Source: Ignavibacteriales bacterium CG18_big_fil_WC_8_21_14_2_50_31_20 (GTDB taxonomy: Bacteria > Bacteroidota > Ignavibacteria > Ignavibacteriales > Melioribacteraceae). From it: 64,000 bases of DNA. Shown in pieces: positions 39,895-57,802 of this stretch. The notes beneath the pieces are model-generated. The model made no database searches. It was not told the origin of the DNA and saw only the letters and a list, made by a program, of their open reading frames with translations. A program made the translations under genes and the position numbers. The first letter of the stretch is position 1; each line of letters begins with the position of its first letter. Where the stretch lies: the NCBI GenBank assembly GCA_002786785.1, contig PCUD01000008.1, forward strand, positions 212 through 64,211, in the 5' to 3' direction.

Positions 39895-40071
39895 AATAAT
39901 TTTCCTAAATAAAAAAAATTTAATTATAGGAACAATATAGCATTTCAACCAATATAACGATTAAGTAATTTTTTTGATAAGAATGGATTTATAAACAAAA
40001 AAATAGCATTTTTCAATTTTTTGACTTTTGTGTTATTCTTTATATCTTTAATTTAATAAAAATGGAAATCA

Positions 40072-41706: not shown

Positions 41707-41849
41707 TGTGAAAAAAGTTGCAAAATCTCATAATGAAACACATTTAATTCTAAAAAAATTCGTTTTTGTTCAAAAAATGAAGTATTATTACGGCACGAAA
41801 ATTGTTAAATATGGTTAACTTTTTATGTATTTGAGGATTAATAAAAACC

Positions 41850-43121
41850 ATGAATGTTGGAATTACTTTAATTAAATCGGGATTTGCTCTTATTGACCAA
41901 AAGTGGGGGGGAGTATACAGAGGAGGAAGTTATTTAGTTGTTGGTCCTCGTAAATCTGGAAGAACTCTTATTAGCCTACAATTTGCGTTAGAAGCTGCTG
42001 AAGCAAATGAAACTTGTGTCTTTTTTACTACAATGCGTCCTCGCGATTTAATGATTCACTCTGCTTCATTAAATGTTGATTTACAAAAACACATGAATAA
42101 AAATAGAATTATTGTAGTAAGAGTTACTCCTCCAAATGATATTTATGATATGTACAATCCAGATGATTTTTTGATTGAATACATGAATGATATTATTACA
42201 GTTGTTAGTCAATACAAGCCATCTAGATTGGTTTTTGATGAACTTACACCATACATTGGGTTCAAAAACTTGGATTTATTAGACGATGTTTTTGCTCATT
42301 TAATAGAAACAATTGAAGAAAAAAACATTACAAGTATGTTTGTTGTTGGTGAACCAGCTACTTCTAAAACTGAAGCAATAATTAATATTTTGAAAGATAA
42401 TGTTACTGCCCATTTAAGCCTTCATAAAATCAATGAAAAAATTCATGGTAAATATCATGGTGGAATTGCATGTATAACTCCAAATGTGGGACATACTGAA
42501 GGGGAGTATGAATCTGAATTTTGGATTGAACCCAAAATAGGAGTTTTAGTAGCTCCATCTGAGAATGTTGAAAAATCAATATCTAATGATAATCTTTCTG
42601 ATTCAACGGAAGAAGGTTCCAAGAACAAAACAAACAATCTAGCTTTTGCTGTTAATACTGAAGAAAAAGATATTCAACTATCTAATTTGTATAGTTATAA
42701 CGATTTTCAATTAATTCTCAATAATCAAATAGCATTGTTTCAAAGTACAGGACAAAAATTTAATTTCATTTCTTTTAGGCTTGATCAAACAGCGCATATT
42801 CAAGGTTTATTGACTATCAATCAACTAAAAAATGCAATTGGGTTATCAATAAACAAAAGAGATAAAATTTGTGTAATTGATAATAATATTATGCTATTAT
42901 TAATAAGAAGCACGGAAGAGCACAAAAAAGATATTTTTAGAGCAATAAAAACACATTTACCAAGCAATGATACAAAATATTTAGAAGCTATTTCAAAATA
43001 TATTTTTGGAGTTGAATTTGACCTTGATGATTCAACTACAAACGCTGAAACACTGCTAACTCCAGTAACAAATAATGATAGTAACTTAAAATACATTTCA
43101 TTTAACCAATTTATTCAATAA
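41850..43121 (+). CDS. KaiC/RecA-like domain with a degenerate Walker A, fused to a degenerate GGDEF-like C-terminal domain (putative regulator of the EPS locus)
   Basis: The N-terminal half has the KaiC/RecA-like layout. Its P-loop reads GPRKSGRT (41943-41966), with Arg where the Walker Lys is expected, and its Walker B reads RLVFDELT. The C-terminal ~140 aa follow a GGDEF-fold pattern (FNFISFRLD...DKICVIDNNIMLLLI) but lack the GG(D/E)EF motif. Confidence 0.45.
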   Translation: MNVGITLIKSGFALIDQKWGGVYRGGSYLVVGPRKSGRTLISLQFALEAAEANETCVFFTTMRPRDLMIHSASLNVDLQKHMNKNRIIVVRVTPPNDIYDMYNPDDFLIEYMNDIITVVSQYKPSRLVFDELTPYIGFKNLDLLDDVFAHLIETIEEKNITSMFVVGEPATSKTEAIINILKDNVTAHLSLHKINEKIHGKYHGGIACITPNVGHTEGEYESEFWIEPKIGVLVAPSENVEKSISNDNLSDSTEEGSKNKTNNLAFAVNTEEKDIQLSNLYSYNDFQLILNNQIALFQSTGQKFNFISFRLDQTAHIQGLLTINQLKNAIGLSINKRDKICVIDNNIMLLLIRSTEEHKKDIFRAIKTHLPSNDTKYLEAISKYIFGVEFDLDDSTTNAETLLTPVTNNDSNLKYISFNQFIQ

Positions 43122-46100
43122 TGAATTTTAGTTTAAAAATATTGTTTTTTTTTATTCTTTTTTCATTTGTTACCCTTAAAGCTCAAGAGAAAAATTTTGA
43201 AATTCTAAAGCGCCAAGGCATAATTCACATGGCAAACAGCAAATACGGCGAAGCAATAGATTTGTTTAATAAATATATTACAGCTAATCCACAAGATGCT
43301 GAAGGCTATAATCTAAGAGGGCTATCCTACGAAAAGCGACAGGTTTATGAATATGCTGTTTTAGACTTACGAAGAGCAATTAATCTAACTCCAAACAATA
43401 GTGTGTACAAGGCTAATTTAAGCAGAGTGATTTCAATTTGGTATCCAATTTTGTATAAAAAAATTGAAGGCCATAAGCGTGAAATTGCTATCAACCCAAA
43501 ATCTGCTTTTGACCATTTAGAAATTGGTAAATCATACAGATGGTTAGAAGAATGGAAATTAGCTGAATTGTGGTATGATAAATACTTAGTTTTAGATGAC
43601 AATGCTTCACCTGATGAAATAATTAGATATTCAATAATTCTTGCAAAAACTGGTTCAATTAAAAAGGGCGAGCGAGTTCTTAAAAAATGGGTTGATAGAT
43701 ATCCAGAGGATTGGAGACTTTGGAGTAGATATGGTTATTTTACTCTTTGGCTTGGAAATCGTGATAATGCGGCAAATGCTTTTAGAAGTTCTTTAAGTTT
43801 TAAGCCTTTCTTTAAAGAAGCTCAAGATGGATTAGACATTGCAACAGAAAAAGGCTATATGGTTAAAAATGAACCAAGAGCTTACGAACGTGGATATCCT
43901 ATTGATGTAAATTATGCAAAACTTAAAAAAAATCCAGCAAATAGTGAAACCCGATTTGAATTAATTGGATTATTAATTGATGCTGATAGAATTGAGGAAG
44001 CTCGTGAACAGTTAAATATTCTTAAAACAGATTACGAAAATAGTGATGAATATAAAGAATTAGATGCAAGACTTACTCCACTGATGATAACTAAATATTC
44101 TTCTTTGCTTGAAGAAAATTTAGCAAAATTAAAACAATTTCCAAACGATAAAACCATTGTCAAAAATGTAGCTGATTATTATGTTCGGTTAAAACAATAT
44201 GATGAAGCTAATGAAATAATGAAAGAATACCTTGACTTGGAACCTGATGATTATGAAATGAAGGAATATTATGCTGATATTCTTGCATATTCTGGAAATT
44301 ATACGGACGCTGCAAATATTTTATCTGAATTAATCGAAAATGGACATTCTTCCAACTTAATTGTACAAAAAGCTGCTAATTATTTTGGAAATGATTTCGA
44401 CTATTTTAGCTCAATTGATTTGCTTAGCAATTACATTGGTGATAAACCAATTGAAGACGTAAAAGAATTGAAATTCCAATTAGCACAGTATTATGCTTGG
44501 AATTATCAATGGGATGACGCATTAAATAGCACTGAAGAATTATTAGAAGCATATCCAAATAATAATAAATATAAATTATTTCGCTCTCAACTTATTGTTT
44601 GGACTGTTGACGATACTGAATTTGAGTCCGCTCAAGTTAGTTTTAATGAAATATTAAAAGAAGATCCTAATAATTTAGAAAGTTTATTAGGGCTTGCTAC
44701 TATTTATTCTTGGAAAAGAGACTACCCAGAGGCAAAAAAATACATTGACAAACTCAAACAACTTTACCCAGATAATAGTGAAATATCAAGTGTAGAGAAT
44801 TTTTATAATGCTCAAATTTCACTTGAACCAGATAGAAAGCGATTAGAAAAACGTGCCGAAATTGGAGAGTTAGTTGAAAAAGAAGATTATAATTCTGCTT
44901 TAGATTTATTCTCTGAGTATTTTGAAATGGATCCTCAGCCTTCCAGACAAGTTTATAAGGAATATGCTCAAATAAATTTAGCTGTTGAAAATTATGATGA
45001 GGCAATTAAAATTTATGAAAATCTTTTGGCTGAAGAATATGAAGAAAATATTGCTTACGATAGAGCTAGTGCATATTTATGGAAAGGCGATTCATTAAAT
45101 GCACTTAATCAATTTTTAGAGCTTTCGAAGCAAAATCCAGAAAATTATGATTATAAAATGGGTTTAGCTGAATCATATTTAATTAATAAAGAATATGGCA
45201 ATGCAGATGATATTTATGATGAAATATTAGATGTTACCAAAGATACAGCTAAGGAAAATTATATTAAACGAAGAAAAGATATGATGCCATTATATGGTTT
45301 ATCAGCCGGTTTAAGTTCTGCTTTTAAATTTATGATACCACAAAATATTAGCTTTATTCCAAGTTTTATTTTTTATGACGATAACCAAATGTTAACTTAT
45401 TACCAATATGGTTTAAGAGCAGAAATTGGTCTCTTTAGATATTTCACAATTGGTGGCACATGGATGCGTACTGATATTTTTTCGTTGTCTACTAGCCAAA
45501 CGTTAACCGAATTATCGGGGCAGTTATATTTTCACCCATTCCCAAAATTTTCTATTGGTGGGAGCTTGGGAAAATTAGATATTCAAAGGGAACTTAAAAA
45601 AAATATTGGTACTATTGAAGCACGTTGGTATTCAGATGATTTGATAGTAAATATTGGATATAAAGACACTGATTCAAGACTTGTTCTCTTTTCACCATTT
45701 TTAATTGATGTTAATTTAACTGCTTTTGTTTATTATTTTGCTGGAAACTATAGATATAAAAACAAATACAAATTATTGTTGTTTTACCAATATTTTAATA
45801 TATCTGATGGAAATCTCGCTAACGATTTTAGATTTAGATTAGGCAAAGCATTTCAAGAAAATATATTTTGGGGTTATGAATATTTCTTTTCTGATTTTGG
45901 TTTTAGTTCAGCAACCTATTACTCTCCACAAGAATATAGTACCCATTCCATTTGGATTGATTACGAGTACAAAAAAGTAAAAAAATTAGATTTAATTTTT
46001 GGTGGTGAAATTGGTTATGCTCCTTCGGTTGATTTTATAGTTGGAAATATTTATGCTGATGCCAGTTATAAAGTTTTAGAAAATCTTTTAATAAACGGAA

Positions 46101-46186
46101 GAGCCACTTATGGTAATTCTTATAGGTTTGATAGCAGTTATCAATTTATTTCAATATTTCTCTCAGCATATTGGAGTATCTGGTAA
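43121..46186 (+). CDS. TPR-repeat periplasmic scaffold fused to a C-terminal outer-membrane beta-barrel (PgaA/PelB/BcsC-like EPS export porin)
   Basis: The start overlaps the upstream stop (TAATG). Has a signal peptide. About 700 aa of TPR-like repeats follow (EAIDLFNKYI..NPQDAEGYNLRGLSY etc). The last ~300 aa show an alternating beta-strand pattern and end in an aromatic residue (YWSIW). Confidence 0.65.
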   Translation: MNFSLKILFFFILFSFVTLKAQEKNFEILKRQGIIHMANSKYGEAIDLFNKYITANPQDAEGYNLRGLSYEKRQVYEYAVLDLRRAINLTPNNSVYKANLSRVISIWYPILYKKIEGHKREIAINPKSAFDHLEIGKSYRWLEEWKLAELWYDKYLVLDDNASPDEIIRYSIILAKTGSIKKGERVLKKWVDRYPEDWRLWSRYGYFTLWLGNRDNAANAFRSSLSFKPFFKEAQDGLDIATEKGYMVKNEPRAYERGYPIDVNYAKLKKNPANSETRFELIGLLIDADRIEEAREQLNILKTDYENSDEYKELDARLTPLMITKYSSLLEENLAKLKQFPNDKTIVKNVADYYVRLKQYDEANEIMKEYLDLEPDDYEMKEYYADILAYSGNYTDAANILSELIENGHSSNLIVQKAANYFGNDFDYFSSIDLLSNYIGDKPIEDVKELKFQLAQYYAWNYQWDDALNSTEELLEAYPNNNKYKLFRSQLIVWTVDDTEFESAQVSFNEILKEDPNNLESLLGLATIYSWKRDYPEAKKYIDKLKQLYPDNSEISSVENFYNAQISLEPDRKRLEKRAEIGELVEKEDYNSALDLFSEYFEMDPQPSRQVYKEYAQINLAVENYDEAIKIYENLLAEEYEENIAYDRASAYLWKGDSLNALNQFLELSKQNPENYDYKMGLAESYLINKEYGNADDIYDEILDVTKDTAKENYIKRRKDMMPLYGLSAGLSSAFKFMIPQNISFIPSFIFYDDNQMLTYYQYGLRAEIGLFRYFTIGGTWMRTDIFSLSTSQTLTELSGQLYFHPFPKFSIGGSLGKLDIQRELKKNIGTIEARWYSDDLIVNIGYKDTDSRLVLFSPFLIDVNLTAFVYYFAGNYRYKNKYKLLLFYQYFNISDGNLANDFRFRLGKAFQENIFWGYEYFFSDFGFSSATYYSPQEYSTHSIWIDYEYKKVKKLDLIFGGEIGYAPSVDFIVGNIYADASYKVLENLLINGRATYGNSYRFDSSYQFISIFLSAYWSIW

Positions 46187-46254
46187 AATCTATTATATTG
46201 TATTTTAGTTTTTAGTCTTTAATTATTTACAAATTAATTAGAAAGTGATGTAAA

Positions 46255-47472
46255 ATGAATATATTTAATAAAATTTCCTTTATTCTAGTAACATATTTTA
46301 TCGTACTTAATTTTTCAACCTTTTATGCTCTCCCACCTGCTAAATCTGGAGATTCAATTGGCAATAGAGTGCCAATAAGTGGCGATATTCAGCAATTGAA
46401 ATACTTTTTTGATGCATTGGAAAAAACAAATTCCGAAAAAATTAGAATTGCACACTATGGTGATTCAATTATTTGGGGTGATATAATTTCAGATAATTTG
46501 CGAGTTAATTTGCAAAAAAAATATGGTGGTCATGGTATCGGATTCTTATCAATTTGTAATGATGACTTAGCAGCGCGCAAAACTATAATGCATGAATTTT
46601 CTGACGATTGGGATTGGGCTTCTGTTTTTACAAAAAATAGAGATAAGTATCCAATTGGAATTGCAGGAACTGTTGCAAAAGCTTCAGCTAATAGTTGGGT
46701 TTCTTTTGCAACAAACCGTGTTTCACCAGCTACTGATTCATTTTCAGAAATGTCGCTATTTTATTCAAACTCAAATTCTAATTCATCTGTAAAGTATAAA
46801 ATTAATGGTGATGAAGCTATTACTGTTAATCTTGAAAACAGTAAAAATTTGACCAAAACAGACGTAAATTTTGGCAAGGAAGTTAATAAAATTAAATTAA
46901 CATTTAACAATAGCGCTGAAGCTTTTTTTTATGGCATTACCTTGGAATCTGGAAATGGAATATATGTTGATAATTTCCCATTTAGAGGAAATTCTGGAGT
47001 TTCTATGCGTGATCTTGATGAAGATTTATTACCAATTTTTACGAATAACCTTAATTATAAATTAGTAATCCTTCAGTTTGGAGTTAATATTGCAGCTTCT
47101 GGGAATATTAAATACAAATGGTATTCAAACATGATGCTAAATGTTCTACAAAAAATCAAAAAATCTTTCCCTAATTCATCAATTTTAATGATATCACCAG
47201 GTGATTTAGGACAAAAACAAGGTAGAAAAATTATAACTCATCCAGAAATTGAAAAATTTGTTAAGGTTCAAGAGGAAATTGCTAATGGAGGTGGGGTTGC
47301 ATTCTGGAATATGTTTGAAGCTATGGGTGGCGAAAATTCAATTGCAAATTGGGTTGAAACTACTCCACCATTAGCTTTTAAAGACTATTGCCACCTTACA
47401 GGTGAAGGTGGTGAGATAATATCAATGAAACTAATCACTGCTCTAATGGAAGCAAAATCAAAAATAAAGTGA
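46255..47472 (+). CDS. Secreted or anchored SGNH/GDSL-type hydrolase or acyltransferase (polysaccharide O-acetyl modification candidate)
   Basis: Block I is AHYGDSIIWGD (GDS at 46459-46467). A block III-like segment is LQFGVNIA. Block V is DYCHLT (D-x-x-H). Confidence 0.6.
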   Translation: MNIFNKISFILVTYFIVLNFSTFYALPPAKSGDSIGNRVPISGDIQQLKYFFDALEKTNSEKIRIAHYGDSIIWGDIISDNLRVNLQKKYGGHGIGFLSICNDDLAARKTIMHEFSDDWDWASVFTKNRDKYPIGIAGTVAKASANSWVSFATNRVSPATDSFSEMSLFYSNSNSNSSVKYKINGDEAITVNLENSKNLTKTDVNFGKEVNKIKLTFNNSAEAFFYGITLESGNGIYVDNFPFRGNSGVSMRDLDEDLLPIFTNNLNYKLVILQFGVNIAASGNIKYKWYSNMMLNVLQKIKKSFPNSSILMISPGDLGQKQGRKIITHPEIEKFVKVQEEIANGGGVAFWNMFEAMGGENSIANWVETTPPLAFKDYCHLTGEGGEIISMKLITALMEAKSKIK

Positions 47473-47643
47473 TTATTTAGTTAATATATACTATTTTGCT
47501 ATCGTACATGTACCAAATTGAGTCAGTATTTATATATCAAAGCTAATAATTAATCTGTTACATTATTATAGCTCAAAATAAACCAAATATGGACTTTTTA
47601 GTTGGCATAATTTTTGTTTTATTACTGAAAAAAGTATAATAAA

Positions 47644-49044
47644 ATGACAACAGAAAATAATCACACATATAAAATTGAATTAGATAACAGAGAAGTTATT
47701 CCTCCCAAAAGAAATGAAGGGAAGGAGAAATTAAGAACTATAATTATTTCTGGACTATTATCAATACTTCTAATTTTTATTATTTTATTTACATTGCCAT
47801 TAACTGTATTAACTTTTGAAGGCTTAATGGTATACGCTTCTATAGTTTCTTTAGTAATTTTTCTTTTTATTTTGCTTTTTAGATATTTTGGCATTTTATT
47901 CTTAGCATATTTTTATATAACAAAATACACTGTTGAAAGTCATTCAAATTTTTCTCCTTTTATTTCAATTATAATTCCTGCATATAACGAAGGTATAAAT
48001 CTTAAAACATCTGTCGAATCTCTATTAAAACTAAATTATTCAAACTATGAATTAATTATTGTAAACGATGGTTCAAAAGACAATACCAAAGAAGTAGGAG
48101 AGGCTCTTGTTGGAATGCAAAATGGAATTAATTCAAAAATTAAAGTTTCGCTTATTAACAAACCAAATGGTGGAAAAGCAAAAGCATTAAATGCAGGCAT
48201 TCAATATTCGGAAGCGGATTTCGTGGTTTGTATGGATGGTGATTCAGTTCTTACGCCAGATACATTGAAAAATGCTGTCAGTCACTTTGAGGACCCAAAT
48301 GTTGGAGCAGTGGCTGGTAATGTAAAAATTGCAAATAGGAATAAATGGTTAACAGATCTTCAAGCATTAGAATATGTAGAAGGATTAAATCTAGCTCGCT
48401 CAGCTCAAGGACAGCTTAGAATGGTTAATATTATTCCAGGTCCTATTGGAATGTTTAGAAAAGAAGCATTAAAGGATGTTGGATTTTATGCAAGTGATAC
48501 TTTTGCAGAAGATGCCGATTTAACATTAAAAATTTTAGCCGTTGGTTGGAAAGTAAATTATGAACCAAATGCACAAGCACTTACTGAAGCCCCAGTAAAG
48601 CTTCATCAACTATTAAAACAAAGATACAGATGGACTCGCGGAATTTTACAAGCAATTAGAAAGCATAAAAAGCATTTAATTAACCCCACATTAAATTTTA
48701 ATAATACAATTGTGCTTTGGGGAATGCTATACGAAGCACTTATTTGGCCTGCAATGAATATTTTTGCTAACATCTTTTTTATAGCAGTGGCTTTATTAAA
48801 TGGTATGTCTAGTCTTATTTTTTATTGGTGGGTAAGTATTGCACTATTAGATTTTATGTCAGCAGTTTATTGCATTGCTGTAGAAAAGGAAGAATTTAGA
48901 CTTGTTCCTTGGGCTTTAGTTTATAGGATGGTTTTTGTTCTTGTTATTGATATTACAAAAGCGATGGCTACCATTGAAGAATTTCTTGGATTTGAAATGG
49001 AATGGGGTCATTTAGAGAGAACTGGAATTGCAAATAAAAAATAA
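47644..49044 (+). CDS. Processive family-2 glycosyltransferase (PgaC/IcaA/NodC-like polysaccharide synthase)
   Basis: Flanking TM helices. Motifs IIIPAYNE, IVNDGSKD, CMDGDS, FAEDADLT and the Q-x-x-R-W motif QRYRWTRG (48619-48642). Confidence 0.85.
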   Translation: MTTENNHTYKIELDNREVIPPKRNEGKEKLRTIIISGLLSILLIFIILFTLPLTVLTFEGLMVYASIVSLVIFLFILLFRYFGILFLAYFYITKYTVESHSNFSPFISIIIPAYNEGINLKTSVESLLKLNYSNYELIIVNDGSKDNTKEVGEALVGMQNGINSKIKVSLINKPNGGKAKALNAGIQYSEADFVVCMDGDSVLTPDTLKNAVSHFEDPNVGAVAGNVKIANRNKWLTDLQALEYVEGLNLARSAQGQLRMVNIIPGPIGMFRKEALKDVGFYASDTFAEDADLTLKILAVGWKVNYEPNAQALTEAPVKLHQLLKQRYRWTRGILQAIRKHKKHLINPTLNFNNTIVLWGMLYEALIWPAMNIFANIFFIAVALLNGMSSLIFYWWVSIALLDFMSAVYCIAVEKEEFRLVPWALVYRMVFVLVIDITKAMATIEEFLGFEMEWGHLERTGIANKK

Positions 49045-49068
49045 AAATTTAATATATGAGGAAAGAAA

Positions 49069-49533
49069 ATGGAACTAATTCCAATCTTATCATTAATTAT
49101 ACTTGTAGCAACAATATCTACATTTATATTAGCAGTTGGTGCCTACATCTTATATAAAATAAGAGAAAGAAAAGGTAGAACTAGTGCTGCTCAGCGTCCA
49201 GATTCAATAGAAGCTGAACTAATTACACCATCTAGAATTGTTGCAGAAACTAATACTCCACGAACGGCTGTAACTGGTGAGCAAATTTATACTAGAAACA
49301 TTAGAAGTGAAGCTGCTTACACAAGCGAACGTTCACCACAAATGCGCCCTACTTTTGTAGCACCAAGAGAAACACGAGCTACACGCACACATATTTCACG
49401 ATATACTGCTCCAATAACACAAGAATCAAATGAACCAGAAAAATATACATCTGCTCAAAAATTTAAACGTTATAACAGTGCATACGATACAAAACCAGAA
49501 GAAAAGAAAGAGGATAGCCTTAAATGGCGTTAA
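49069..49533 (+). CDS. Small single-pass membrane protein with a low-complexity Thr/Arg/Pro/Glu-rich tail
   Basis: One N-terminal TM helix (ILSLIILVATISTFILAVGAYILY), then ~115 aa that look disordered. The 3-prime end overlaps the next gene by 10 nt. It sits in the PgaD/IcaD-like position after the synthase. Confidence 0.5.
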   Translation: MELIPILSLIILVATISTFILAVGAYILYKIRERKGRTSAAQRPDSIEAELITPSRIVAETNTPRTAVTGEQIYTRNIRSEAAYTSERSPQMRPTFVAPRETRATRTHISRYTAPITQESNEPEKYTSAQKFKRYNSAYDTKPEEKKEDSLKWR

Positions 49534-51545
49534 AAGATTCAAAATATGACAAAAAGCAGCAGAAGAAGAAAAATTCTGATGCAGAATCCAACCAAGCTAT
49601 TAAAGGATTACGCGTAAATTATCCAATAATATTTTTGAGTGGATTAGTTATTCTTATTGCATCAATTTTAACATTTCTTTTGATTATCAAAAATATTTTT
49701 GGTAATTACGAATTATCAGAAATATTACCAACACGAGAAAATTTACAAGAATTTAGATACTCTGAAAAGGTTGGGATTTTGTATTCAAATTATACTGCAA
49801 ATATGCTTGGTAGCGATGTAACTTGGGTTCAAGATAATATTGACACGTGGAAAGAGTTTCTAAAAAATCTAAAAATTAATTACGAAGTATTTACTGATTT
49901 AGACCTTGAGGAAGTAAAGCATAAAAAGTATAATCTAATTATTCTTGCTGGCGCAAAATCCATGAGTGATAAAGAAGTGGTGCAAATAAAAAAATATATT
50001 GATGCAGGTGGGTCAATTCTTGCAACAGGTGGAGTTGCTACTTTTTCAAGCGAAGCTAAATGGAGAGGTTGGGATTTCTTTAAGGAAACTTTTGGAATGA
50101 AATTTACAAAGGAACTTTCTCCACTAGAAATGCTTAAGAAAAACCATACATTAAGAGGAAACATGCCTTTAACTGCTGGAATTCCTACTGGCTATATTTT
50201 ACAAATTGCAACATGGGATAGACCTGTTTATGCGGAAATTTTAGAACAAAGAGTTACACAAGTAAGTTATTGGTATGATTATAGAGGTGAAAAAGGATTA
50301 GTTGATGAACAAATTAAAAAAAGTGCTGGCATTGCCAATGGAACTTATGGGAAAGGTCGTTTTGTTTGGTACGGTTTTGAACTAAATTCAGTAGTTGGAA
50401 GTAATGAAGATTATACAAATTTGGCTAAATTAGTAAAAAATAGTGTTAACTGGTTGATATATCAACCAACGTCTTACGTTAAAGATTGGCCAGAACCTTA
50501 TGTTGCTGCCGCAATTTATTTACCAACGGTTAAAGAAAATACAAATAATCTAAGCTCAATTAAAAGTACTATTTCAGAATTTAAGGAAGATGCTGCAATA
50601 ATTGTTGAAGATAATCTTGCGTTAAAATACACTGAAGAATTATCTAAGTTATCCCAATATGGAGAGATTATCCCTATAATTGAATTAGGGGTTTTTGAAC
50701 CATTTTCTACAGTTGATGATGACTTTTATGCAACTAAAACAACTGCCAATTCTGAATCAAATTTAGGTTCAAAAGAGATTCAAAAATCAAGTATTCTTTA
50801 TGTTAAGGATTCTCTAAACAAATTAATTAACAAAAAATTGTTAGGTATTACTCCATATTCTGGTTTTTATAATCAAACAACATTAGATATTTTGGCAGAA
50901 GAAGATATAAGTTATATAATTACCGATTCAATTACTGATAGATCTGTTCCAAACAAAATTATATTAAATGAAAAGGAAGTTTTTATAATTACAAATACAT
51001 CTCGTGACGATATTAAAATAATGAAGGAATTTGGACTAATGGACCCAAAATTTCAAAAATATACTTATTTTGAAGATATTGATAGAATTGTATTTGAAGG
51101 TGGTTTATATGTTTTAAAATTGCATAATAATTATCAATTAAGACCAGAGTATAAGCATATTTTTGGAGATATTACCAAATATATAAATTCTCAAAATATT
51201 TGGGTTACTTCCATTCCTAAATTATTAAAGTGGTGGGAATCTAAGAGTGGTGTTGAATTAAAATATGATACACGTGGCAAAAGAAGAATATCAGTTGAAG
51301 TTTCTAACCACAAAGATACACGTGAAGATGAATTTACTGTTGAAGTGAATTTTAATAAAGCAGTAAAAAATATTGAAATATCTGCTGAATTAATTAATAC
51401 CCCAATTCCAAAATATAAATTTGATGATGAAACTCAGATTTTATATTTATATATTAAAAATCTTAAAAAAGATGAATCAAGAATCTTTTTAATCGATTTT
51501 GAAAATATTAATGAATTTAATGCTAATGAAAGACTTATTTTTTAG
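49524..51545 (+). CDS. Membrane-anchored extracytoplasmic protein with a possible GATase1/ThuA-like region plus a polysaccharide-deacetylase-like (NodB-fold) region lacking obvious catalytic motifs
   Basis: Lys-rich N-terminus and one TM helix. The segment NLIILAGAKSMSDKEVVQIKKYIDAGGSILATGG looks GATase1-like. The C-terminal half shows a CE4-like strand/helix pattern (LLGITPYSGFYN...YVLKLHNNY...IWVTSIPKLLKWWE) without a recognisable DD or HxxH motif. Confidence 0.4.
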   Translation: MALKDSKYDKKQQKKKNSDAESNQAIKGLRVNYPIIFLSGLVILIASILTFLLIIKNIFGNYELSEILPTRENLQEFRYSEKVGILYSNYTANMLGSDVTWVQDNIDTWKEFLKNLKINYEVFTDLDLEEVKHKKYNLIILAGAKSMSDKEVVQIKKYIDAGGSILATGGVATFSSEAKWRGWDFFKETFGMKFTKELSPLEMLKKNHTLRGNMPLTAGIPTGYILQIATWDRPVYAEILEQRVTQVSYWYDYRGEKGLVDEQIKKSAGIANGTYGKGRFVWYGFELNSVVGSNEDYTNLAKLVKNSVNWLIYQPTSYVKDWPEPYVAAAIYLPTVKENTNNLSSIKSTISEFKEDAAIIVEDNLALKYTEELSKLSQYGEIIPIIELGVFEPFSTVDDDFYATKTTANSESNLGSKEIQKSSILYVKDSLNKLINKKLLGITPYSGFYNQTTLDILAEEDISYIITDSITDRSVPNKIILNEKEVFIITNTSRDDIKIMKEFGLMDPKFQKYTYFEDIDRIVFEGGLYVLKLHNNYQLRPEYKHIFGDITKYINSQNIWVTSIPKLLKWWESKSGVELKYDTRGKRRISVEVSNHKDTREDEFTVEVNFNKAVKNIEISAELINTPIPKYKFDDETQILYLYIKNLKKDESRIFLIDFENINEFNANERLIF

Positions 51546-51559
51546 GAAACTGCTATAAA

Positions 51560-53413
51560 ATGAAAAATTATTCTAAAATATATTTTATTTTTTTATTGGT
51601 TGGATTATTTCTTATTGGTTGTGTGCAATCAGTTGAAAACCCTTATAATGGTGGTGGCACCAATATAAATGAAAATAAACCAGTCATTAATATTCTTAAT
51701 CCTGTTTCAGGTGATTCAATTTATATGGGTTATACATCAATTATATATCAAGCAACCGATTATAATGGAGGTCCTGGATTATTGCTATATAATTTGTTTG
51801 TTGATGGAGTTTTGGTTCAGAGCTTTCCTCAAAATGAAGATGGTTCAAATCCTTATTTATATTTTAGTACAGATACATTAGAAAAAAAATTAGGCATAAA
51901 TCCAGCTTCTTGGCCTTCCGAAATATCTTACGCAATGACAGTTGTAAATATTGATAAAGATTTTGGTGAAACAGTTTTGATAGATAGTATTTATATTAAC
52001 CGAAAACCTGTTGCTCCAAGTAATTTAGTTTTAACAAGAATTTCTGATAAATCATTCAATCTTTTTTGGGATGATAAAGCTTCAAACGAAACTAAATACG
52101 AAGTTTGGAGACAAGATGGAAGTAACAATACTTTTTTATTTATTAAAGATTTACCAATTAATTCGATAAGTACTAATGATGTAGTTAATTCAGATTATAT
52201 AAATTATGGATATAAAATTAGGGCAGTAAATAGTTTTGGAAGTTCTGCTTTTAGTAATATTGCTTATTCAAGTGGGGTTCCAGGTGGTGATGCACCAACA
52301 AATCTAAAAGGTGAAGCATTAGGCGCTTCAACAATTCAGTTAACTTGGGATGATAATTCCGAAACCGAAGATGGTTTTGTTATTGAACGTACTAATCCAG
52401 CAACTGGAAATTATGAAAGATTAGTTGTATTACCTAAAAATACTAAAGAATATTTTGATTCTGATTTATATCCTCTTACTACTTATAGATATAGAATTGC
52501 TTCATTCAAAAGTTCTTCAATTTCTGCGTTTTCTAATGTTGTAACTGTTTCTACTTATGACAAAGATATTGCAGCCCCTGAAAATTTAATTGCAACTTAT
52601 AAACCAATTGATAAAGCTGTTTATCTAACTTGGACTGATAATACAAACAAAGAAGACGGTGCAATTATTGAACGAAAGGAAACAATTAATGGTGAGTTTA
52701 AAATTATTGGAACTACTACTGCCGATATAAATTATTTTTCAGATGCTAATATTGTTGAAAACCAGCTTTATTATTACCGAGCAAGATTTAATATAGTTGA
52801 TGGTTTCAAAACAACATATTCTAATGTTGATACAGTTTTTGTATACGATGCTCCACCTTTTGCACCTTCAAATTTGCAAATAACCAAATTTACCGACACT
52901 ACTTATAGTTTATGGTGGACTGATAATTCTGATGATGAAGAAGGTTTTCAACTTTGGAGAAAAGATGGAAGCACTGGAGTTTATTATTTATATAAAGATT
53001 TGCTCCAAAACACAACTGGGTTTAATGATAAAATTGCAAGTGGAGTTACTTATTTTTACAAAGTTCGTGCATACAGATCACCTACTTTCTCTGCTTTTTC
53101 AAACGAAGTAAATAACGAAAGTATTGGTTCTAAATACCCAGCGCCAACAAATTTATCGTATTCCATTGTAAATTCAAATCAAGTTAAATTAAATTGGACA
53201 AATGCTGCAACTGACGAACTTCAAATTATTGTTGAACGAAAATTACAGACAGAAATAGATTTTAATGAAATTAAAAGATTATCTCCTGGAACTACAACAT
53301 TAACTGATTCTGATGGTTTATCAAATAATTTGACTGTCTTTTATAGATTAAAAACAAAATATCCACAGGGTGAGTCAGAATATACAACTGAATTAACAGT
53401 TTATATTCCTTAA
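51560..53413 (+). CDS. Lipoprotein with an Ig-like domain and five tandem fibronectin type III domains
   Basis: Lipobox LFLIGC. Five repeats each contain P..P(S/T)NL....(W)(D/T)D.(S/T).(N/D)E.G(F/A).(I/L/V)(W/E)R. Confidence 0.75.
   Translation: MKNYSKIYFIFLLVGLFLIGCVQSVENPYNGGGTNINENKPVINILNPVSGDSIYMGYTSIIYQATDYNGGPGLLLYNLFVDGVLVQSFPQNEDGSNPYLYFSTDTLEKKLGINPASWPSEISYAMTVVNIDKDFGETVLIDSIYINRKPVAPSNLVLTRISDKSFNLFWDDKASNETKYEVWRQDGSNNTFLFIKDLPINSISTNDVVNSDYINYGYKIRAVNSFGSSAFSNIAYSSGVPGGDAPTNLKGEALGASTIQLTWDDNSETEDGFVIERTNPATGNYERLVVLPKNTKEYFDSDLYPLTTYRYRIASFKSSSISAFSNVVTVSTYDKDIAAPENLIATYKPIDKAVYLTWTDNTNKEDGAIIERKETINGEFKIIGTTTADINYFSDANIVENQLYYYRARFNIVDGFKTTYSNVDTVFVYDAPPFAPSNLQITKFTDTTYSLWWTDNSDDEEGFQLWRKDGSTGVYYLYKDLLQNTTGFNDKIASGVTYFYKVRAYRSPTFSAFSNEVNNESIGSKYPAPTNLSYSIVNSNQVKLNWTNAATDELQIIVERKLQTEIDFNEIKRLSPGTTTLTDSDGLSNNLTVFYRLKTKYPQGESEYTTELTVYIP
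52007..53410 (+). repeat. Five diverged tandem FN3-coding repeats (~95 codons each)
   Basis: Unit starts are PVAPSNLVLTRIS, DAPTNLKGEAL, AAPENLIATYK, PFAPSNLQITKF and PAPTNLSYSIV. Confidence 0.7.
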
Positions 53414-53430
53414 GAAATTAGGTGTAAATT

Positions 53431-56385
53431 ATGGAAAACAATATCGAAAATATTACAAATTTAGTGAGTGATAAATTAGTAACTCACTTAAGAATTAATA
53501 CTGATGAAGTTTATGAGTTTATTGAGGATAAAGCAATTTTAGATATAATTGAAATTGTAAAACAATCATATCCATTTACTTTTATTGGTCGCCAAAAATT
53601 TAGACGAAAAATTGATCAACTTAGTTTTGGCTTTTGGATAAAAGATTCAAATGATAAAATGATAATTGTAAACGATGTATTTGCAAAATCTTTAAATCAA
53701 AAAGTATCTGAAATTGAAGGGAAACTTATTACCGATTTATATAGTGATGATGAATATCAATTAATTAAAAATATAACCAATTATATTATTTCAACTTCCA
53801 ATTCTGTAATCTATGAATCTTTTTCTAAAAAGAGCAGTGAAGATTTTGTTCAGGTTGTTGAATTTCCAATTTGTGATATAGACGATAAAGTAGTAGCAAT
53901 TATTGGGTTTAATCAAAAAGCATTTAAATTAGATGAATTAATAAATAACGATTTAAATATTCAAACTAATATAGAAGATATTCCAGCAGTTGTAGTTTTA
54001 GTTTCAAACGATTTTGTTGTGCAAAGTTTTTCAAATAAATTTTATAAAGAATTTAATCTAAATCCTAATTCAATAAAAAGCCAAAATCTTCAGTCAATTT
54101 TTAGTATAGATTTTGCTAAACTTATGCATAAAGATTCTGGTGCAACTATTAAAATTGGCAAAAGTGAATATTTATTTGAATATAAAAAAACAAATATTAA
54201 CGAATTGGATGGATATTATTTTTCATTTATCGAAATACTTGAAAAATCTAAAAAAAGCAATTCTTCAGAAAAATCATTTGATATGCTAATGTACACAAGT
54301 CCCGATCCAATGTTTATTTATGGAATTGACAATCTTAAATTTCTAAAAGTAAACGATGCAGCATTGAAATTTTATGGTTATCGCGAGGAAGAATTTTTGA
54401 GTATGGACCTCACTGATTTGTATGCACCCGAAGATATTCAAACTTTAGTTGATTCTTCATCTAATAATACACTTGAAAGAGGATTCACTGGCCCTTGGCG
54501 TCAAAAGAAAAAAGATGGCAGTACAATTAAGGTTGAAGTAAGTAAATCTGGAATTGAATATAATAATACACAATCGCATTTTAACATTATTAGAGATATT
54601 TCAAAAAATATTGAAAATGATAAAATTATTAGCCAATTTAATTTGGTACTCGAAAATATAGGTGATATCATTTTAGTAACTGATGCTGATGGTTTTATTA
54701 AACAAGCAAATGAAAGTGTTAGCGAAATATTAGGTTACAATGCTTCTTCACTAAATGAAAGATCTTTTCTTTCATTAGTTGCAGATGATTTTAGAGCAAA
54801 AATAAATACATCTATATTTCACAATTCTAAAAATAAAAAAGCTAAATTAGAGTGTAATCTCAAAAAAGAAGATGGAACTTTAGTTACTGTTAATTTAATT
54901 TCATGTCCAATATTTGGTGTTAATAAAGAATTAGAATCATTTTTAATAATTATTAAATCTGAAAAAGATGTTGTTGTTAAAACAGTTGTTCAAAAAGAAA
55001 TTATTGTTGAACCTACTGAAAATACGTCAAAAGGGAATTTAGATTCAGATTTCTTAGGGTATCTTTTTCACGAACTTTTAACTCCTGTGAATGTTATTAT
55101 TGGGTTTTCTCAAGAATTAGCTGAAAATGCTGATTCAGCAAGTGAAGAAGTTAAAGAAGCGATGGATATAATTAAACAAAATCAACGAATTCTGCTACAG
55201 CTTATGGATAACGCTGTTCAGTATTCTGAATTAGAACAAAACAAAATGAAAATTAGTCCAAATAATGTACATTTTGTTGAACTAATTGACCAAATTGAGA
55301 CCGATATTAAAAAGACGTCATCTAATTTTAATAAAGAATTAAAATACGGTAAAATATCCTCGTCATTAATATTTGAAACTGATAAGAACAAAATTGAAGT
55401 ATTAACTTCAATGCTAATTGATTTTGCAATGCGAGTTACAAAAAGTGACAGAATATTTCTTTCGGCTTATCAAACAGATACGAGTCATTGTGTAATTGCT
55501 GTTAAAGATGATAGAAATGAAATATCCAAAGAATTGGCTGCTGGATTAGAAACAATATTTACAGGCAATGAAGAAGAAATTCGTCATAAATATGGAATCT
55601 CTCGCTTCACAAGACGGTTCGCAATCAAGCTTTCTAAAATTCTTACAGATAGTGCTGGAATTATTTCTAAATATGGAAAAGAATATGAATTCGGTTTTAC
55701 TATTCCAGTCCGTTTTAATAATAAAAAAATATCAGAAATTTTAGGAAGTAGTAAATTGATAAATAGCGAAAGTAGCATAAACACACAAGTGGATGAAACT
55801 TTTAAAAAGGAACTAGTGGAAAACAAAGAATTTGAGCCAGTTATCAAAGAGGAAAAAGAAGCTTCGAGAGAGCCAATTACTTTTCAGGTAAATGTAAATA
55901 CACAATCTACTTCTCAACAAAGTGTTCAACCACCATTAACTCAGCCAGAACCAGTATTTAAGGAAGTTACTTCGCAAATGGTGGAAGAAGTTGCCACTGA
56001 AGTAATTGAGCAAAAAAGTTTTGAATCGCTTTCTTGTCTTTATGTGGAAGATCAAGTTGATTCACAAATATTATTTAAAGTTCAAATGAAAGGACTAAAA
56101 TCAATAGAATTTGCGAATAGTTTTGAAAAAGCTATTCCATTACTTCAAACAAAAAAGTTCGATTTTATTGTAATGGATATAAATTTACAAGGCGAATACA
56201 ACGGTTTGGATGCTTTACGAGCAATTCAAAAAATGCCAGAATATATTAATGTTCCAATTGTTGCTGTTACTGCTTATGTGCTTCCAGGTGATAGAGAGCG
56301 ATTTATTTCTGCTGGATTTAACGACTTTATTTCTAAACCTATTTTACGTGATAAATTAGAAACTTGTTTAAACAATATTTTTTAG
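53431..56385 (+). CDS. Cytoplasmic multi-PAS hybrid sensor: HisKA-like H-box, apparently degenerate ATPase domain, Gln/Pro-rich linker and C-terminal receiver domain
   Basis: No TM segment. PAS-like blocks are present (e.g. FIYGIDNLKFLKVNDAALKFYGYREEEF). The H-box is FHELLTPVNVIIGF (His codon 55069-55071). The following ~200 aa lack clear N, G1 (DxGxG) and G2 (GxGLG) boxes. The receiver has VEDQ, FIVMDINL (Asp codon 56176-56178), VAVTAY and SKPI. Confidence 0.65.
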   Translation: MENNIENITNLVSDKLVTHLRINTDEVYEFIEDKAILDIIEIVKQSYPFTFIGRQKFRRKIDQLSFGFWIKDSNDKMIIVNDVFAKSLNQKVSEIEGKLITDLYSDDEYQLIKNITNYIISTSNSVIYESFSKKSSEDFVQVVEFPICDIDDKVVAIIGFNQKAFKLDELINNDLNIQTNIEDIPAVVVLVSNDFVVQSFSNKFYKEFNLNPNSIKSQNLQSIFSIDFAKLMHKDSGATIKIGKSEYLFEYKKTNINELDGYYFSFIEILEKSKKSNSSEKSFDMLMYTSPDPMFIYGIDNLKFLKVNDAALKFYGYREEEFLSMDLTDLYAPEDIQTLVDSSSNNTLERGFTGPWRQKKKDGSTIKVEVSKSGIEYNNTQSHFNIIRDISKNIENDKIISQFNLVLENIGDIILVTDADGFIKQANESVSEILGYNASSLNERSFLSLVADDFRAKINTSIFHNSKNKKAKLECNLKKEDGTLVTVNLISCPIFGVNKELESFLIIIKSEKDVVVKTVVQKEIIVEPTENTSKGNLDSDFLGYLFHELLTPVNVIIGFSQELAENADSASEEVKEAMDIIKQNQRILLQLMDNAVQYSELEQNKMKISPNNVHFVELIDQIETDIKKTSSNFNKELKYGKISSSLIFETDKNKIEVLTSMLIDFAMRVTKSDRIFLSAYQTDTSHCVIAVKDDRNEISKELAAGLETIFTGNEEEIRHKYGISRFTRRFAIKLSKILTDSAGIISKYGKEYEFGFTIPVRFNNKKISEILGSSKLINSESSINTQVDETFKKELVENKEFEPVIKEEKEASREPITFQVNVNTQSTSQQSVQPPLTQPEPVFKEVTSQMVEEVATEVIEQKSFESLSCLYVEDQVDSQILFKVQMKGLKSIEFANSFEKAIPLLQTKKFDFIVMDINLQGEYNGLDALRAIQKMPEYINVPIVAVTAYVLPGDRERFISAGFNDFISKPILRDKLETCLNNIF

Positions 56386-56390
56386 ACTAA

Positions 56391-56445
56391 AAATCCAACA
56401 ACTTTTTAATAAAATACTTTTTAGTTGTTGGATTTATCTTTTTAT
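56391..56445 (+). terminator. Rho-independent terminator closing the EPS/sensor gene string
   Basis: aaatccaacaact-19 nt loop-agttgttggattt (13-bp stem) followed by atcttttt. Confidence 0.7.
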
Positions 56446-56536
56446 TAAAAACTAATTTTTCTTATCATAAATAAACATGAAACTTTAAATAACTAATCAA
56501 AATATTCTCTTGCAGAATTATTATTTTATCCATAAA

Positions 56537-56562
56537 TTATACCATACAAATGTATGGTATAA
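56537..56562. promoter_or_regulatory. Perfect 26-bp palindrome (12-bp arms, 2-bp spacer) 19 nt upstream of lexA; candidate LexA operator
   Basis: The sequence ttataccataca-aa-tgtatggtataa was checked base by base, and every position pairs. Confidence 0.55.
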
Positions 56563-56580
56563 AGTAAATGGAATTAAAAA

Positions 56581-57201
56581 ATGCAAAAAGAACTAACAAA
56601 AATTCAGCAAGATATTTTGAACTATTTAATTGAATTAAAAAGTAAAAGTGCTGTTCCAACACTTGCAGAAATTGCAAAACATTTTGAATATAAAAATCGT
56701 TCAACTGTTCAACAACATTTGCAATCAATTGAAAAGAAAGGATTTATTAAACGAAATCCCAAAATTTCTGGAGGCATTGAATTGACTTTTGACAATAACT
56801 ATTTTATTCCTCGTCCTATTCTTGGTGAAGTTGCTGCAGGAAATCCTCTTACAATATATCCAGACTCTATTGATACTATTGAATTACCAACTATTGCACA
56901 CGTTCCTAACGATTCGTTTTTACTTAAAGTAAAAGGGGATAGCTTAAAGGATGCATATATATTTACTGGCGATATTGTTATTGTAAATCCGAACTTGCAA
57001 GCAGAAAATGGACAATTTGTTGTTGCAGTTTTGGATAATGCAGCAGTTGTTAAAAGGTTTGTTAAAAAGAATGATTTAATTGAACTACATTCTGAAAATA
57101 CAGAATATGAACCAATAATTATTGAAAGCACACATCCAAATTTTCAATTAGTTGGTGTTGTAATTGGAGTTTATAGAACAATGGCAAAGAAAGTTGGTTA
57201 A
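56581..57201 (+). CDS. lexA: LexA repressor (S24 autopeptidase)
   Basis: N-terminal winged HTH (LTKIQQDILNYLIE...PTLAEIAKHF). Ala-Gly cleavage site in VAAGNP. Catalytic Ser in VKGDSLKDA and Lys in AVVKRF. Confidence 0.9.
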   Translation: MQKELTKIQQDILNYLIELKSKSAVPTLAEIAKHFEYKNRSTVQQHLQSIEKKGFIKRNPKISGGIELTFDNNYFIPRPILGEVAAGNPLTIYPDSIDTIELPTIAHVPNDSFLLKVKGDSLKDAYIFTGDIVIVNPNLQAENGQFVVAVLDNAAVVKRFVKKNDLIELHSENTEYEPIIIESTHPNFQLVGVVIGVYRTMAKKVG

Positions 57202-57204
57202 ATA

Positions 57205-57705: not shown

Positions 57706-57717
57706 CACAATACTTTA

Positions 57718-57741
57718 TGTCATTCCAGCAAAAGCGGGAAT
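57718..57741 (+). repeat. Degenerate copy of the hairpin repeat (tgtcattccagcaaaagcgggaat)
   Basis: Same ends as the 24-nt repeat at 57753, with a changed centre. Confidence 0.6.
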
Positions 57742-57752
57742 ATTTTTATAGC

Positions 57753-57776
57753 TGTCATTCCCGCGAAGGCGGGAAT
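57753..57776 (+). repeat. 24-nt hairpin-forming repeat tgtcattcccgcgaaggcgggaat (left arm flanking the GIY-YIG gene)
   Basis: The internal stem is attcccgc-gaag-gcgggaat. Its exact reverse complement occurs at 58105-58128. Confidence 0.85.
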
Positions 57777-57802
57777 CTTTTCAATTTTATAGTATCTTAA
57801 AT

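Follow-up and report, generated by a model that had tools for sequence, protein, structure and literature searches.

A KaiC-associated gene block of Ignavibacteriota that probably encodes a distinct type of synthase-dependent exopolysaccharide machine

Our analyses of a 64,000-nucleotide stretch of contig PCUD01000008.1 from Ignavibacteriales bacterium CG18_big_fil_WC_8_21_14_2_50_31_20 (the window) concern a run of genes at 41850–56385, here numbered 1 to 8, and a gene for a glycoside hydrolase of family GH9 just upstream of it. We propose that these genes together form a machine for the synthesis and export of an exopolysaccharide by the synthase-dependent route, probably one of a distinct and uncharacterised type that is conserved across Ignavibacteriota. 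Our confidence in the general function is high, whereas it is moderate to low for the product and for the roles of genes 1, 5, 6, 7 and 8. The locus is best described as combining a PgaC-like synthase with Bcs-like logic, in the form of a putative BcsC-type barrel, a hydrolase from an endoglucanase family and a BcsE-shaped regulator, and as adding parts of its own, namely an anchored scaffold with GIFT- and CE4-like domains, a lipoprotein with FN3 repeats, an apparent pseudo-kinase as sensor and probable control by sigma-54.

Conservation and layout of the gene block

A scan of the gene 4 protein, a GT2 glycosyltransferase, against one genome per GTDB species yielded 75 loci, most of them in Melioribacteraceae, Ignavibacteriaceae and other Ignavibacteriota. 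Among the cultured carriers are Melioribacter sp. OK-6-Me, Melioribacter sp. Ez-97 and Rosettibacter primus (loci L013, L035 and L053 of Melioribacter and Rosettibacter). Of the 75 loci, 38 extend for 8 kb or more to either side of the GT2 gene and are counted as complete. The order GH9 gene–gene 1–gene 2–(gene 3)–gene 4–gene 5–gene 6–gene 7–gene 8 is kept in 31 of these 38, with gene 3 in 19 and without it in 12, and the genes taken singly are present in 32 (GH9), 35 (gene 1), 34 (gene 2), 21 (gene 3), 38 (gene 5), 36 (gene 6), 36 (gene 7) and 35 (gene 8) of them. An earlier reading of the window from its letters alone (the sequence-only reading) had made its case depend on genes 1, 7 and 8 accompanying the synthase in related genomes, and they do so in 35–36 of the 38 complete loci. 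On the strength of this co-conservation of the regulator, FN3 and sensor genes, we regard the cluster as a real unit.

The outer neighbours of the block are variable. The VIT-family gene found upstream in the window recurs in none of the other loci, LexA and MGMT genes lie downstream in a minority, and the outer flanks differ even where the GT2 proteins are 70–93% identical and the nine-gene block is kept. The arrangement is not due to chance, the block being syntenic in dozens of genomes whose outer neighbours differ.

Where the sequence-only reading had placed nine genes within 41850–56385, the list of open reading frames of the window holds eight, all co-directional, and the reading's own list also names eight; the ninth co-conserved gene is the GH9 gene (Table 1). 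The spacing it described holds up: genes 1 and 2 overlap by 1 nt at 43121, genes 5 and 6 by 10 nt at 49524–49533, the short gaps measure 24, 14 and 17 nt and the two larger ones 68 and 171 nt. Across loci the median spacing is -1 nt for genes 1 and 2 and -10 nt for genes 5 and 6, with gaps of 12–20 nt between genes 6 and 7 and between genes 7 and 8. The terminator reported at 56391 is likewise borne out by folding energy, shuffled controls and the tract that follows it. Its 13-bp stem (56391–56403 paired with 56423–56435) encloses a 19-nt loop and is followed by the U-rich tract UAUCUUUUUAUU; the hairpin has a folding energy of -15.3 kcal/mol (z = -3.7), and none of 200 shuffles was as stable. 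A generic scan for sigma-70 promoters and terminators gave no information in DNA so rich in AT, with 102 promoter-like sites where 111 were expected, and its terminator search missed the hairpin because the loop is long. An Rfam scan of 39000–58000 found no riboswitch and no other RNA family.

Related clusters occur in other phyla. A locus of Zhuqueibacterota (L059) and a similar one labelled 'Cytophagia' (L063) keep a KaiC-only gene, the TPR-porin, the GT2 synthase, the small protein, the CE4-like protein, the FN3 protein and the GH9 hydrolase, with the GH9 gene moved downstream onto the opposite strand and the PAS sensor gene missing. Their first gene (L059:5946-6689; L063:5346-6119) encodes a KaiC-like domain alone, of 247–257 residues, with GRT in its Walker A motif and without the C-terminal GGDEF-like domain. 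The WOR-3 locus L070 has a KaiC domain with a GGDEF-like C-terminal domain, a TPR protein, the GT2 synthase, the small protein and an intact CE4 domain, and again the sensor is missing. In Myxococcota, a 770-residue KaiC-REC-X protein (L064:5666-7978) is encoded directly upstream of a TPR protein and a GT2 synthase, and in three loci of Acidobacteriota (L071, L072 and L074) a KaiC-like gene lies a few kilobases from a related GT2 gene. One of the latter proteins (L072:2719-4428, minus strand) has a weak REC match and C-terminal weak matches to Pfam GGDEF_2 (E 0.004) and GGDEF (E 0.03). The KaiC-like proteins of L064 and L072 both have a canonical GK(S/T) Walker A motif, a receiver and a further C-terminal domain, in the order known from BcsE, and both are encoded beside a TPR exporter and a related GT2 synthase. 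The KaiC-like protein thus recurs in partnership with a TPR exporter and a PgaC-like GT2 synthase.

Table 1. Genes and other features of the locus, with positions in the window
Feature	Position	Strand	Description
GH9 gene	40072..41706	+	secreted GH9 glycoside hydrolase with N-terminal CelD_N Ig-like domain, from Pfam matches
gene 1	41850..43121	+	predicted cytoplasmic protein: KaiC/RecA-like domain (about 1–238), disordered linker, remote GGDEF-like domain (about 278–423)
gene 2	43121..46186	+	predicted outer-membrane exporter: signal peptide, about 700 residues of TPR, putative C-terminal beta-barrel of BcsC type (about 300 residues)
gene 3	46255..47472	+	putative SGNH esterase (Ape1 type; accessory, periplasmic) with blocks I and II separated by an inserted domain
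gene 4	47644..49044	+	predicted processive synthase of the GT2 family in the inner membrane, without PilZ; nearest to PgaC/IcaA and NodC
gene 5	49069..49533	+	predicted small single-pass membrane protein with low-complexity tail; probable translational coupling to gene 6
gene 6	49524..51545	+	one predicted transmembrane helix, ThuA/GIFT/GH42M-like alpha/beta domain, CE4 (NodB) barrel without metal triad, beta-sandwich
gene 7	51560..53413	+	predicted lipoprotein: N-terminal Ig-like region and five FN3 repeats
gene 8	53431..56385	+	predicted cytoplasmic PAS-rich hybrid sensor: HisKA, degenerate ATP-binding (CA) domain, intact receiver
sigma-54-type -24/-12 element, gene 1	41792..41805	+	GGCACGAAAATTGT; putative promoter element 45 nt upstream of gene 1
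sigma-54-type -24/-12 element, gene 4	47603..47617	+	TGGCATAATTTTTGT; putative promoter element 27–41 nt upstream of the synthase start codon
intrinsic-terminator-like hairpin	56391..56435	+	3' end of the locus; from folding energy and shuffles

Directly downstream of the hairpin, at 56581–58096, lie genes for LexA, O6-methylguanine-DNA methyltransferase and a small GIY-YIG protein, a DNA-damage-related group unrelated to the locus.

Synthase, exporter and periplasmic parts

That gene 4 encodes a processive GT2 synthase with QRYRW and without PilZ, as had been read from its letters, is confirmed by Pfam, NCBIfam and the conservation of its motifs. Pfam GT2 families match it with an E-value of 1e-33, no PilZ domain was found in Pfam, and the motifs DGS, D(G/S)D (the DxD motif), ED and QRYRW are conserved across 72 sequences. 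Among NCBIfam models it reaches 202.9 bits with PgaC_IcaA (TIGR03937; E 8e-60, cutoff 422.3), 122 bits with NodC and 77 bits with CelA (cutoff 699). Aligned over 335 residues, it shares 30% identity with E. coli PgaC.

The protein of the upstream hydrolase gene carries a signal peptide and matches Pfam GH9 (E 7e-74) and CelD_N (E 3e-12), and its catalytic motifs DAGD and NEP are conserved in 47 orthologues. The known activities of this family are on beta-1,4-linked glucans, xyloglucan and glucosamine oligomers. Because the co-conserved GH9 protein would act on beta-1,4 bonds and the barrel of the exporter is BcsC-like, we infer that a beta-1,4-linked product, cellulose-like or chitin/chitosan-like, is favoured over beta-1,6-linked poly-N-acetylglucosamine (PNAG).

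Gene 2 has many Pfam TPR matches, at residues 19–716 or thereabouts, a signal peptide and an aromatic C-terminal residue. The TPR part of the TPR-porin that had been proposed is thereby upheld, and its beta-barrel is suggested by a weak similarity to BcsC, which is weighed below. Scores with curated models are low, at 43 bits with the BcsC equivalog (cutoff 858) and 37.6 bits with that of PgaA (TIGR03939; cutoff 366), the latter from TPR repeats only. In hhalign the barrel region was aligned to that of E. coli PgaA with a probability of 0.5%, and a search of PDB sequences with its profile returned nothing. We infer that the barrel is of BcsC rather than PgaA type. In some loci of Ignavibacteriota (L007, L043 and L046, and also L065 and L069) the TPR-porin between gene 1 and the synthase, or the whole upstream half, is missing; the exporter of such loci may be encoded elsewhere in the genome.

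Four further genes would contribute periplasmic and membrane parts. The SGNH motifs GDS, GxN and DxxH of gene 3 are conserved in 36 sequences, its Pfam score is below the cutoff, and its profile matches PDB entries 4k3u, 4k40, 4k7j and 4k9s (E 2e-27), which we take to be Ape1 of Neisseria meningitidis, an O-acetyl esterase. The SGNH fold of Ape1 is interrupted by an inserted carbohydrate-binding module (PMC9487903). Since no MBOAT partner is found at the locus and the gene is absent from 17 of the 38 complete loci, gene 3 is better read as an accessory esterase than as part of an acetylation module of the Alg/Wss type; the SGNH enzyme of the sequence-only reading survives, and the likening to the modification of alginate and acetylated cellulose does not. 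Gene 5 has a single N-terminal hydrophobic helix followed by a sequence rich in R, T and E. It matches no Pfam or NCBIfam family, and PgaD was not found at E <= 0.01.

The 673-residue protein of gene 6 had been described as anchored and NodB-like. Foldseek with its AlphaFold2 (AF2) model indeed returned CE4 deacetylases (3rxz, E 4e-9), and for the N-terminal domain folds of the ThuA/GH42M type including the ThuA-like 4jqs. Pfam matches are weak, to ABC_transp_aux, GIFT and ThuA in the window protein and to PF01522 and PF08532 in orthologues. The CE4 fold thus stands, but the metal triad is gone. No histidine is conserved within residues 330–530 of the Ignavibacterial family, and in an alignment to the WOR-3 orthologue, which retains HGDEH and RPPYG and has a 72-bit Pfam match, the Asp of MT1, the HxxxH of MT2 and the Arg of MT3 are absent, leaving no His-His-Asp metal site. 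Alignment to E. coli PgaB by hhalign gave a probability of 0.1%. Our reading is that gene 6 is a pseudo-deacetylase serving as a periplasmic scaffold, for which a non-canonical activity would be possible.

The five-FN3 lipoprotein was described correctly: gene 7 has the lipobox LIGC and five AP.NL...W.D repeats (Pfam fn3, E 5e-17). Orthologues range from 397 to 823 residues and vary in the number of FN3 repeats.

Regulatory proteins and promoter-like elements

Gene 1 had been read as a KaiC/RecA-like domain joined to a GGDEF-like one. The KaiC-like fold of the N-terminal half is well founded, with a Pfam KaiC match (E 3e-20) and Foldseek matches to KaiC/FlaH (E 4e-14) and to PH0186 (E about 1e-13). 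The Walker A motif reads GPRKSGRT, with the lysine replaced by arginine in 49 of 52 orthologues, and an invariant methionine (Met62) aligns with the catalytic glutamate, E77 of KaiC and E96 of RecA. The relatives in WOR-3, Myxococcota and Acidobacteriota retain GK(T/S). With both the Walker A lysine and the catalytic glutamate gone, the domain would be a pseudo-ATPase.

In the AF2 model, a linker (residues 239–274) with a predicted local distance difference test score (pLDDT) below 50 is followed by a 150-residue domain predicted with confidence, whose order of secondary structure elements fits alpha-beta-alpha-alpha-beta-beta-alpha-beta. Comparison of profiles points to a GGDEF-like domain here: with widened alignments, hhalign aligned it to six E. 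coli GGDEF domains with a probability of 70% (E 4e-5) and 126 columns in register, whereas alignment to the single E. coli sequence DgcT (probability 1.4%) was too weak for use. Foldseek with the full model returned only KaiC-type proteins among the 50 matches listed. The position of GG(D/E)EF reads (I/V)(D/E)N(N/K)(I/V), and that of RxxD, the inhibitory site (I-site) of GGDEF domains, reads x-K-(R/K)-D, with an invariant Asp flanked by invariant lysines and with the Arg replaced by N, S, T or D. The WOR-3 homologue has a stretch, DFTGLFN, that resembles the N-terminal motif of GGDEF domains. The family of the C-terminal domain is small, with 59 clusters at 50% identity. Of its distant members, eight of full or nearly full length were scanned, and all have an N-terminal KaiC domain, while a 1389-residue match (P0288) is without a Pfam domain.

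The nearest parallel in architecture is that of BcsE, in whose N-terminal region a predicted RecA-like fold that superimposes on KaiC and has a degenerate Walker A motif precedes degenerate REC and GGDEF domains (PMC7439463). The domain architecture of gene 1 parallels this, and we hypothesize, by analogy, that gene 1 works like BcsE. The identification of gene 1 as BcsE itself was rejected, there being no detectable sequence similarity: hhalign gave a probability of 0.3% with E. coli BcsE, and neither GIL nor GGDEF of Pfam matched any of 35 family members at E <= 10. Of the degenerate GGDEF receptor proposed earlier, only the architectural analogy stands, and the I-site Arg is not conserved.

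Two putative promoters of the sigma-54 type precede genes 1 and 4. In the 171-nt gap before gene 4, TGGCAY-N5-TTGY is invariant in an alignment of close relatives. This pattern occurs once in the window (47603). Of its 44 matches in 2.6 Mb of related loci, 36 lie some 45 nt before gene 4, in 36 loci out of 74. The relaxed pattern GGCAY-N5-TTGY is found about 47 nt upstream of the gene-1 reading frame in 13 of 55 loci; on both strands of the 2.6 Mb of related loci it has 59 matches, 49 of them at the gene-1 or gene-4 site and none before other genes of the block. In the window itself, three matches to the relaxed pattern against 1.3 expected are not significant, and the evidence is their positional conservation. 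The third of these, at 11548–11561 on the minus strand, lies antisense inside the reading frame at 10980–11882 and was rejected as probably due to chance. Promoters of this type depend on an enhancer-binding protein, which would have to be unlinked. A conserved element, TGTaTCAtTTTGAGyCA, is found near 47508–47526 (region TGTACCAAATTGAGTCAGT), some 95 nt before the -24 box that precedes gene 4, and at the same place in loci L001, L002, L003 and L005; it is a candidate binding site for the enhancer-binding protein.

The PAS hybrid sensor that had been assigned to gene 8 is confirmed in its three PAS domains, HisKA and Response_reg matches in Pfam, without a transmembrane segment, but its kinase domain is degenerate. 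HATPase_c was not matched in Pfam at E <= 0.01, and the N, G1 and G2 boxes (about residues 650–760) are degenerate in all 44 sequences, with the H-box FHE(L/I)LTP and the receiver Asp conserved. Gene 8 appears to be a pseudo-kinase, which probably relays or removes phosphate and does not autophosphorylate. The idea that control is delivered by the first and last genes alone did not survive, given this degenerate domain and the conserved sigma-54-type elements, which imply an unlinked enhancer-binding protein.

Model, alternatives and known systems

We propose the following model for the locus. The gene 4 synthase would polymerise a beta-linked homopolymer of hexose or N-acetylhexosamine from a housekeeping UDP-sugar and move it across the inner membrane, where the membrane-anchored scaffold of gene 6, probably with gene 5, would receive it in the periplasm. 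The TPR domain of gene 2 would then guide the polymer to its exit through the BcsC-like beta-barrel of the same protein. The secreted GH9 enzyme may trim or release the chain, as BcsZ does for cellulose, with the Ape1-like SGNH esterase of gene 3 as an optional modifier, and the FN3 lipoprotein of gene 7 would probably bind or tether the polymer at the outer membrane. Transcription is proposed to start from the two sigma-54-type promoters, upstream of genes 1 and 4, with the unlinked enhancer-binding protein. Because the kinase domain of gene 8 is degenerate while HisKA and the receiver are present, this protein may act as a phosphotransfer or phosphatase node, not as an autokinase. Control of the synthase at the post-translational level would fall to gene 1, which may bind nucleotides or serve as a scaffold, much as BcsE does.

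Several observations weigh against this model or parts of it. The sugar and the linkage are not readable from the sequence of gene 4, whose closest relatives, PgaC and IcaA, make beta-1,6 polymers and match below the cutoff. The GH9 protein could be an ordinary cellulase. For the exporter, the C-terminal profile of gene 2 aligns only weakly with the barrel of E. coli BcsC (residues 945–1054; hhalign E 5.7e-4, probability 29%, with YYSPQEY shared), and the sole recurrent Pfam match, BCSC_C, is sub-threshold, in two of 17 orthologues (best E 0.002) and in the window protein (E 0.32). The AF2 model of gene 6 has a mean pLDDT of 63, with residues 170–278 below 50. Three of the 52 orthologues of gene 1 read GQRKSGKT, keeping the Walker A lysine along with the Met at the glutamate position, and lost motifs are no proof of lost activity. 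Its C-terminal domain matches nothing in Pfam at E <= 10 when 35 members are searched; profile searches with it gave no PDB sequence and, among 1.84 billion proteins, only its own family. The sigma-54 pattern precedes gene 4 in no more than 36 of 74 loci and gene 1 in 13 of 55, and a motif scan for GAFTGA, the mark of an enhancer-binding protein, gave no match in the window.

Could the locus be a divergent pgaABCD system instead, making partially deacetylated PNAG with genes 2, 6, 4 and 5 in the roles of PgaA, PgaB, PgaC and PgaD? PgaC_IcaA is the best curated GT2 match (E 8e-60, 203 bits), identity to E. coli PgaC is 30%, a TPR and barrel exporter, a CE4-fold protein and a small membrane protein stand beside the synthase, and the WOR-3 relative has an intact CE4 domain. 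Yet we consider this improbable, for the GT2 score is less than half of the 422-bit equivalog cutoff, gene 6 is without a His-His-Asp site and has no similarity to PgaB (hhalign probability 0.1%), the putative barrel aligns weakly with BcsC and not with PgaA, gene 5 has one transmembrane helix and no PgaD match, and the co-conserved hydrolase belongs to GH9, a family known to act on beta-1,4 bonds, not to GH153 as in PgaB. A narrower reading, in which only genes 2, 4, 5 and 6 form a functional unit while the GH9, FN3 and sensor genes are kept by shared descent and the GH9 protein serves as a nutritional cellulase, strikes us as just as doubtful. Most loci come from one phylum, so that synteny could partly reflect relatedness; the GH9 gene is without a sigma-54 element, and the sensor is missing in L059, L063 and L070. 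The four GH9 genes of Melioribacter roseus were all taken to be degradative, a cell-bound carboxymethylcellulase activity was seen, and the genome paper, which counts these genes among the cellulases, makes no mention of a locus of this kind (PMC3534657). Against this stand the outer flanks, which differ at 70–93% GT2 identity around a nine-gene block that is kept, the Zhuqueibacterota, which retain GH9 and FN3 genes in the cluster though the former lies on the far side and on the other strand, and the median gaps of 12–20 nt between genes 6, 7 and 8, which fit co-transcription.

A further alternative concerns control rather than product, in that the locus might be switched on mainly by cyclic di-GMP (c-di-GMP), with gene 1 as a degenerate-GGDEF receptor of the PelD/YdaK/BcsE type activating the PilZ-less synthase. 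PelD and the PgaC–PgaD pair use c-di-GMP. So does BcsE (PMC7439463), and the C-terminal domain of gene 1 is GGDEF-like, with its invariant I-site-aligned Asp and flanking lysines, and has distant homologues with REC and GGDEF-like domains. We nonetheless think this unlikely, if less so than the two readings above: in RxxD the Arg gives way to N, S, T or D, the first gene of Zhuqueibacterota lacks the C-terminal domain, no c-di-GMP riboswitch was found in 39000–58000, and the motif scan detected no GGDEF protein encoded in the window.

What is the relevance of such a locus? Synthase-dependent secretion is known in depth for a few systems (cellulose, PNAG, alginate and Pel), mostly from Proteobacteria and Firmicutes. 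In Ignavibacteriota, a phylum with mostly uncultured members that is often met in sediments, groundwater, hot springs and bioreactors, the locus described here would fill the same role, and it could account for the formation of matrix or aggregates by these bacteria. It would also serve as a natural experiment in the control of such machinery by means other than PilZ. In five or more other phyla a KaiC-like protein accompanies related synthases; some lineages seem to have an active form of it and others a degenerate one, and the partnership hints at a wider evolutionary context for the N-terminal domain of BcsE. In its boldest form, which we hold tentatively and regard as somewhat unlikely to prove right, the proposal would be that of a new secretion class across Ignavibacteriota, related to systems of several other phyla, with a PilZ-less GT2 synthase under a dedicated KaiC-derived regulator, maybe of an ancestral BcsE type (KaiC-like, (REC), GGDEF-like), with three enzymes (a KaiC-like ATPase, a CE4 deacetylase and a histidine kinase) turned, in the Ignavibacterial branch, into scaffolds or signalling parts without catalysis, and with a GH9-processed beta-1,4 polymer that is new for the group. 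The cultured carriers, Melioribacter spp. and Rosettibacter primus, make the predictions for the locus directly testable.

How does the locus compare with known systems? The sequence-only reading had stated that it matches no canonical operon, and this is what we find: no gene has an equivalog-level NCBIfam match, the proteins go by 'hypothetical' or 'RAD55 family ATPase' in public records, no curated model describes the operon, and our literature search found no paper on the gene set. For each Pga and Bcs component that was looked for, the match is absent, below the cutoff or weak. Gene 3, taken alone, resembles Neisseria Ape1 in having an SGNH fold whose blocks I and II are set apart by an inserted domain, but it lies inside an exopolysaccharide locus, has no patA/patB partners and is dispensable in 17 of 38 complete loci. 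With Pel the locus shares export by TPR and a putative barrel (PelB), a predicted outer-membrane lipoprotein partner (PelC), what appears to be a cytoplasmic protein with a degenerate GGDEF-like domain (PelD, a receptor) and a CE4-type domain (PelA, a deacetylase). PelF, however, is a GT4 enzyme and the locus synthase a GT2, PelD is a GAF-GGDEF protein with intact RxxD, PelA is an active deacetylase and hydrolase, and Pfam and NCBIfam scans detected no sequence similarity of the locus proteins to Pel proteins.

The logic of pgaABCD/icaADBC, the PNAG systems (a GT2 synthase, a TPR-porin and a small membrane protein), had been recognised in the sequence-only reading. The parts are present: a PgaC/IcaA-like GT2 without PilZ, a TPR-porin, a small membrane protein after the synthase and a periplasmic protein of CE4 fold. 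The analogy is weaker than it had seemed, since the putative barrel aligns weakly with BcsC and not with PgaA, gene 5 has one transmembrane helix and no PgaD match, and the CE4 domain is without a metal site. PgaD has two transmembrane helices. In addition, the GT2 protein scores below the equivalog cutoff, GH153 is lacking, and the locus adds KaiC-like, GH9, FN3 and sensor genes.

Unlike the synthase of the enterobacterial type II cellulose secretion system (Bcs; BcsRQABZC-EFG), that of the locus has no PilZ and scores 77 bits with CelA as against 203 with PgaC, and its hydrolase belongs to GH9 where the Bcs hydrolase belongs to GH8. Gene 1 lacks the REC domain and has no detectable sequence similarity to BcsE, and the locus adds the anchored CE4-like protein, the FN3 lipoprotein and the sigma-54-type promoters. 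Genes for BcsB, BcsQ, BcsR, BcsF and BcsG are not found at the locus, the proteins of genes 1 to 8 matching no BcsB family in Pfam or NCBIfam; gene 6 could be a functional analogue of BcsB. Shared with Bcs are a processive GT2 synthase, a TPR exporter whose putative barrel aligns with that of BcsC and includes YYSPQEY, a secreted hydrolase of an endoglucanase family and, in gene 1, a KaiC-like RecA-fold domain, probably a pseudo-ATPase, followed by what appears to be a degenerate GGDEF-like domain, as in BcsE.

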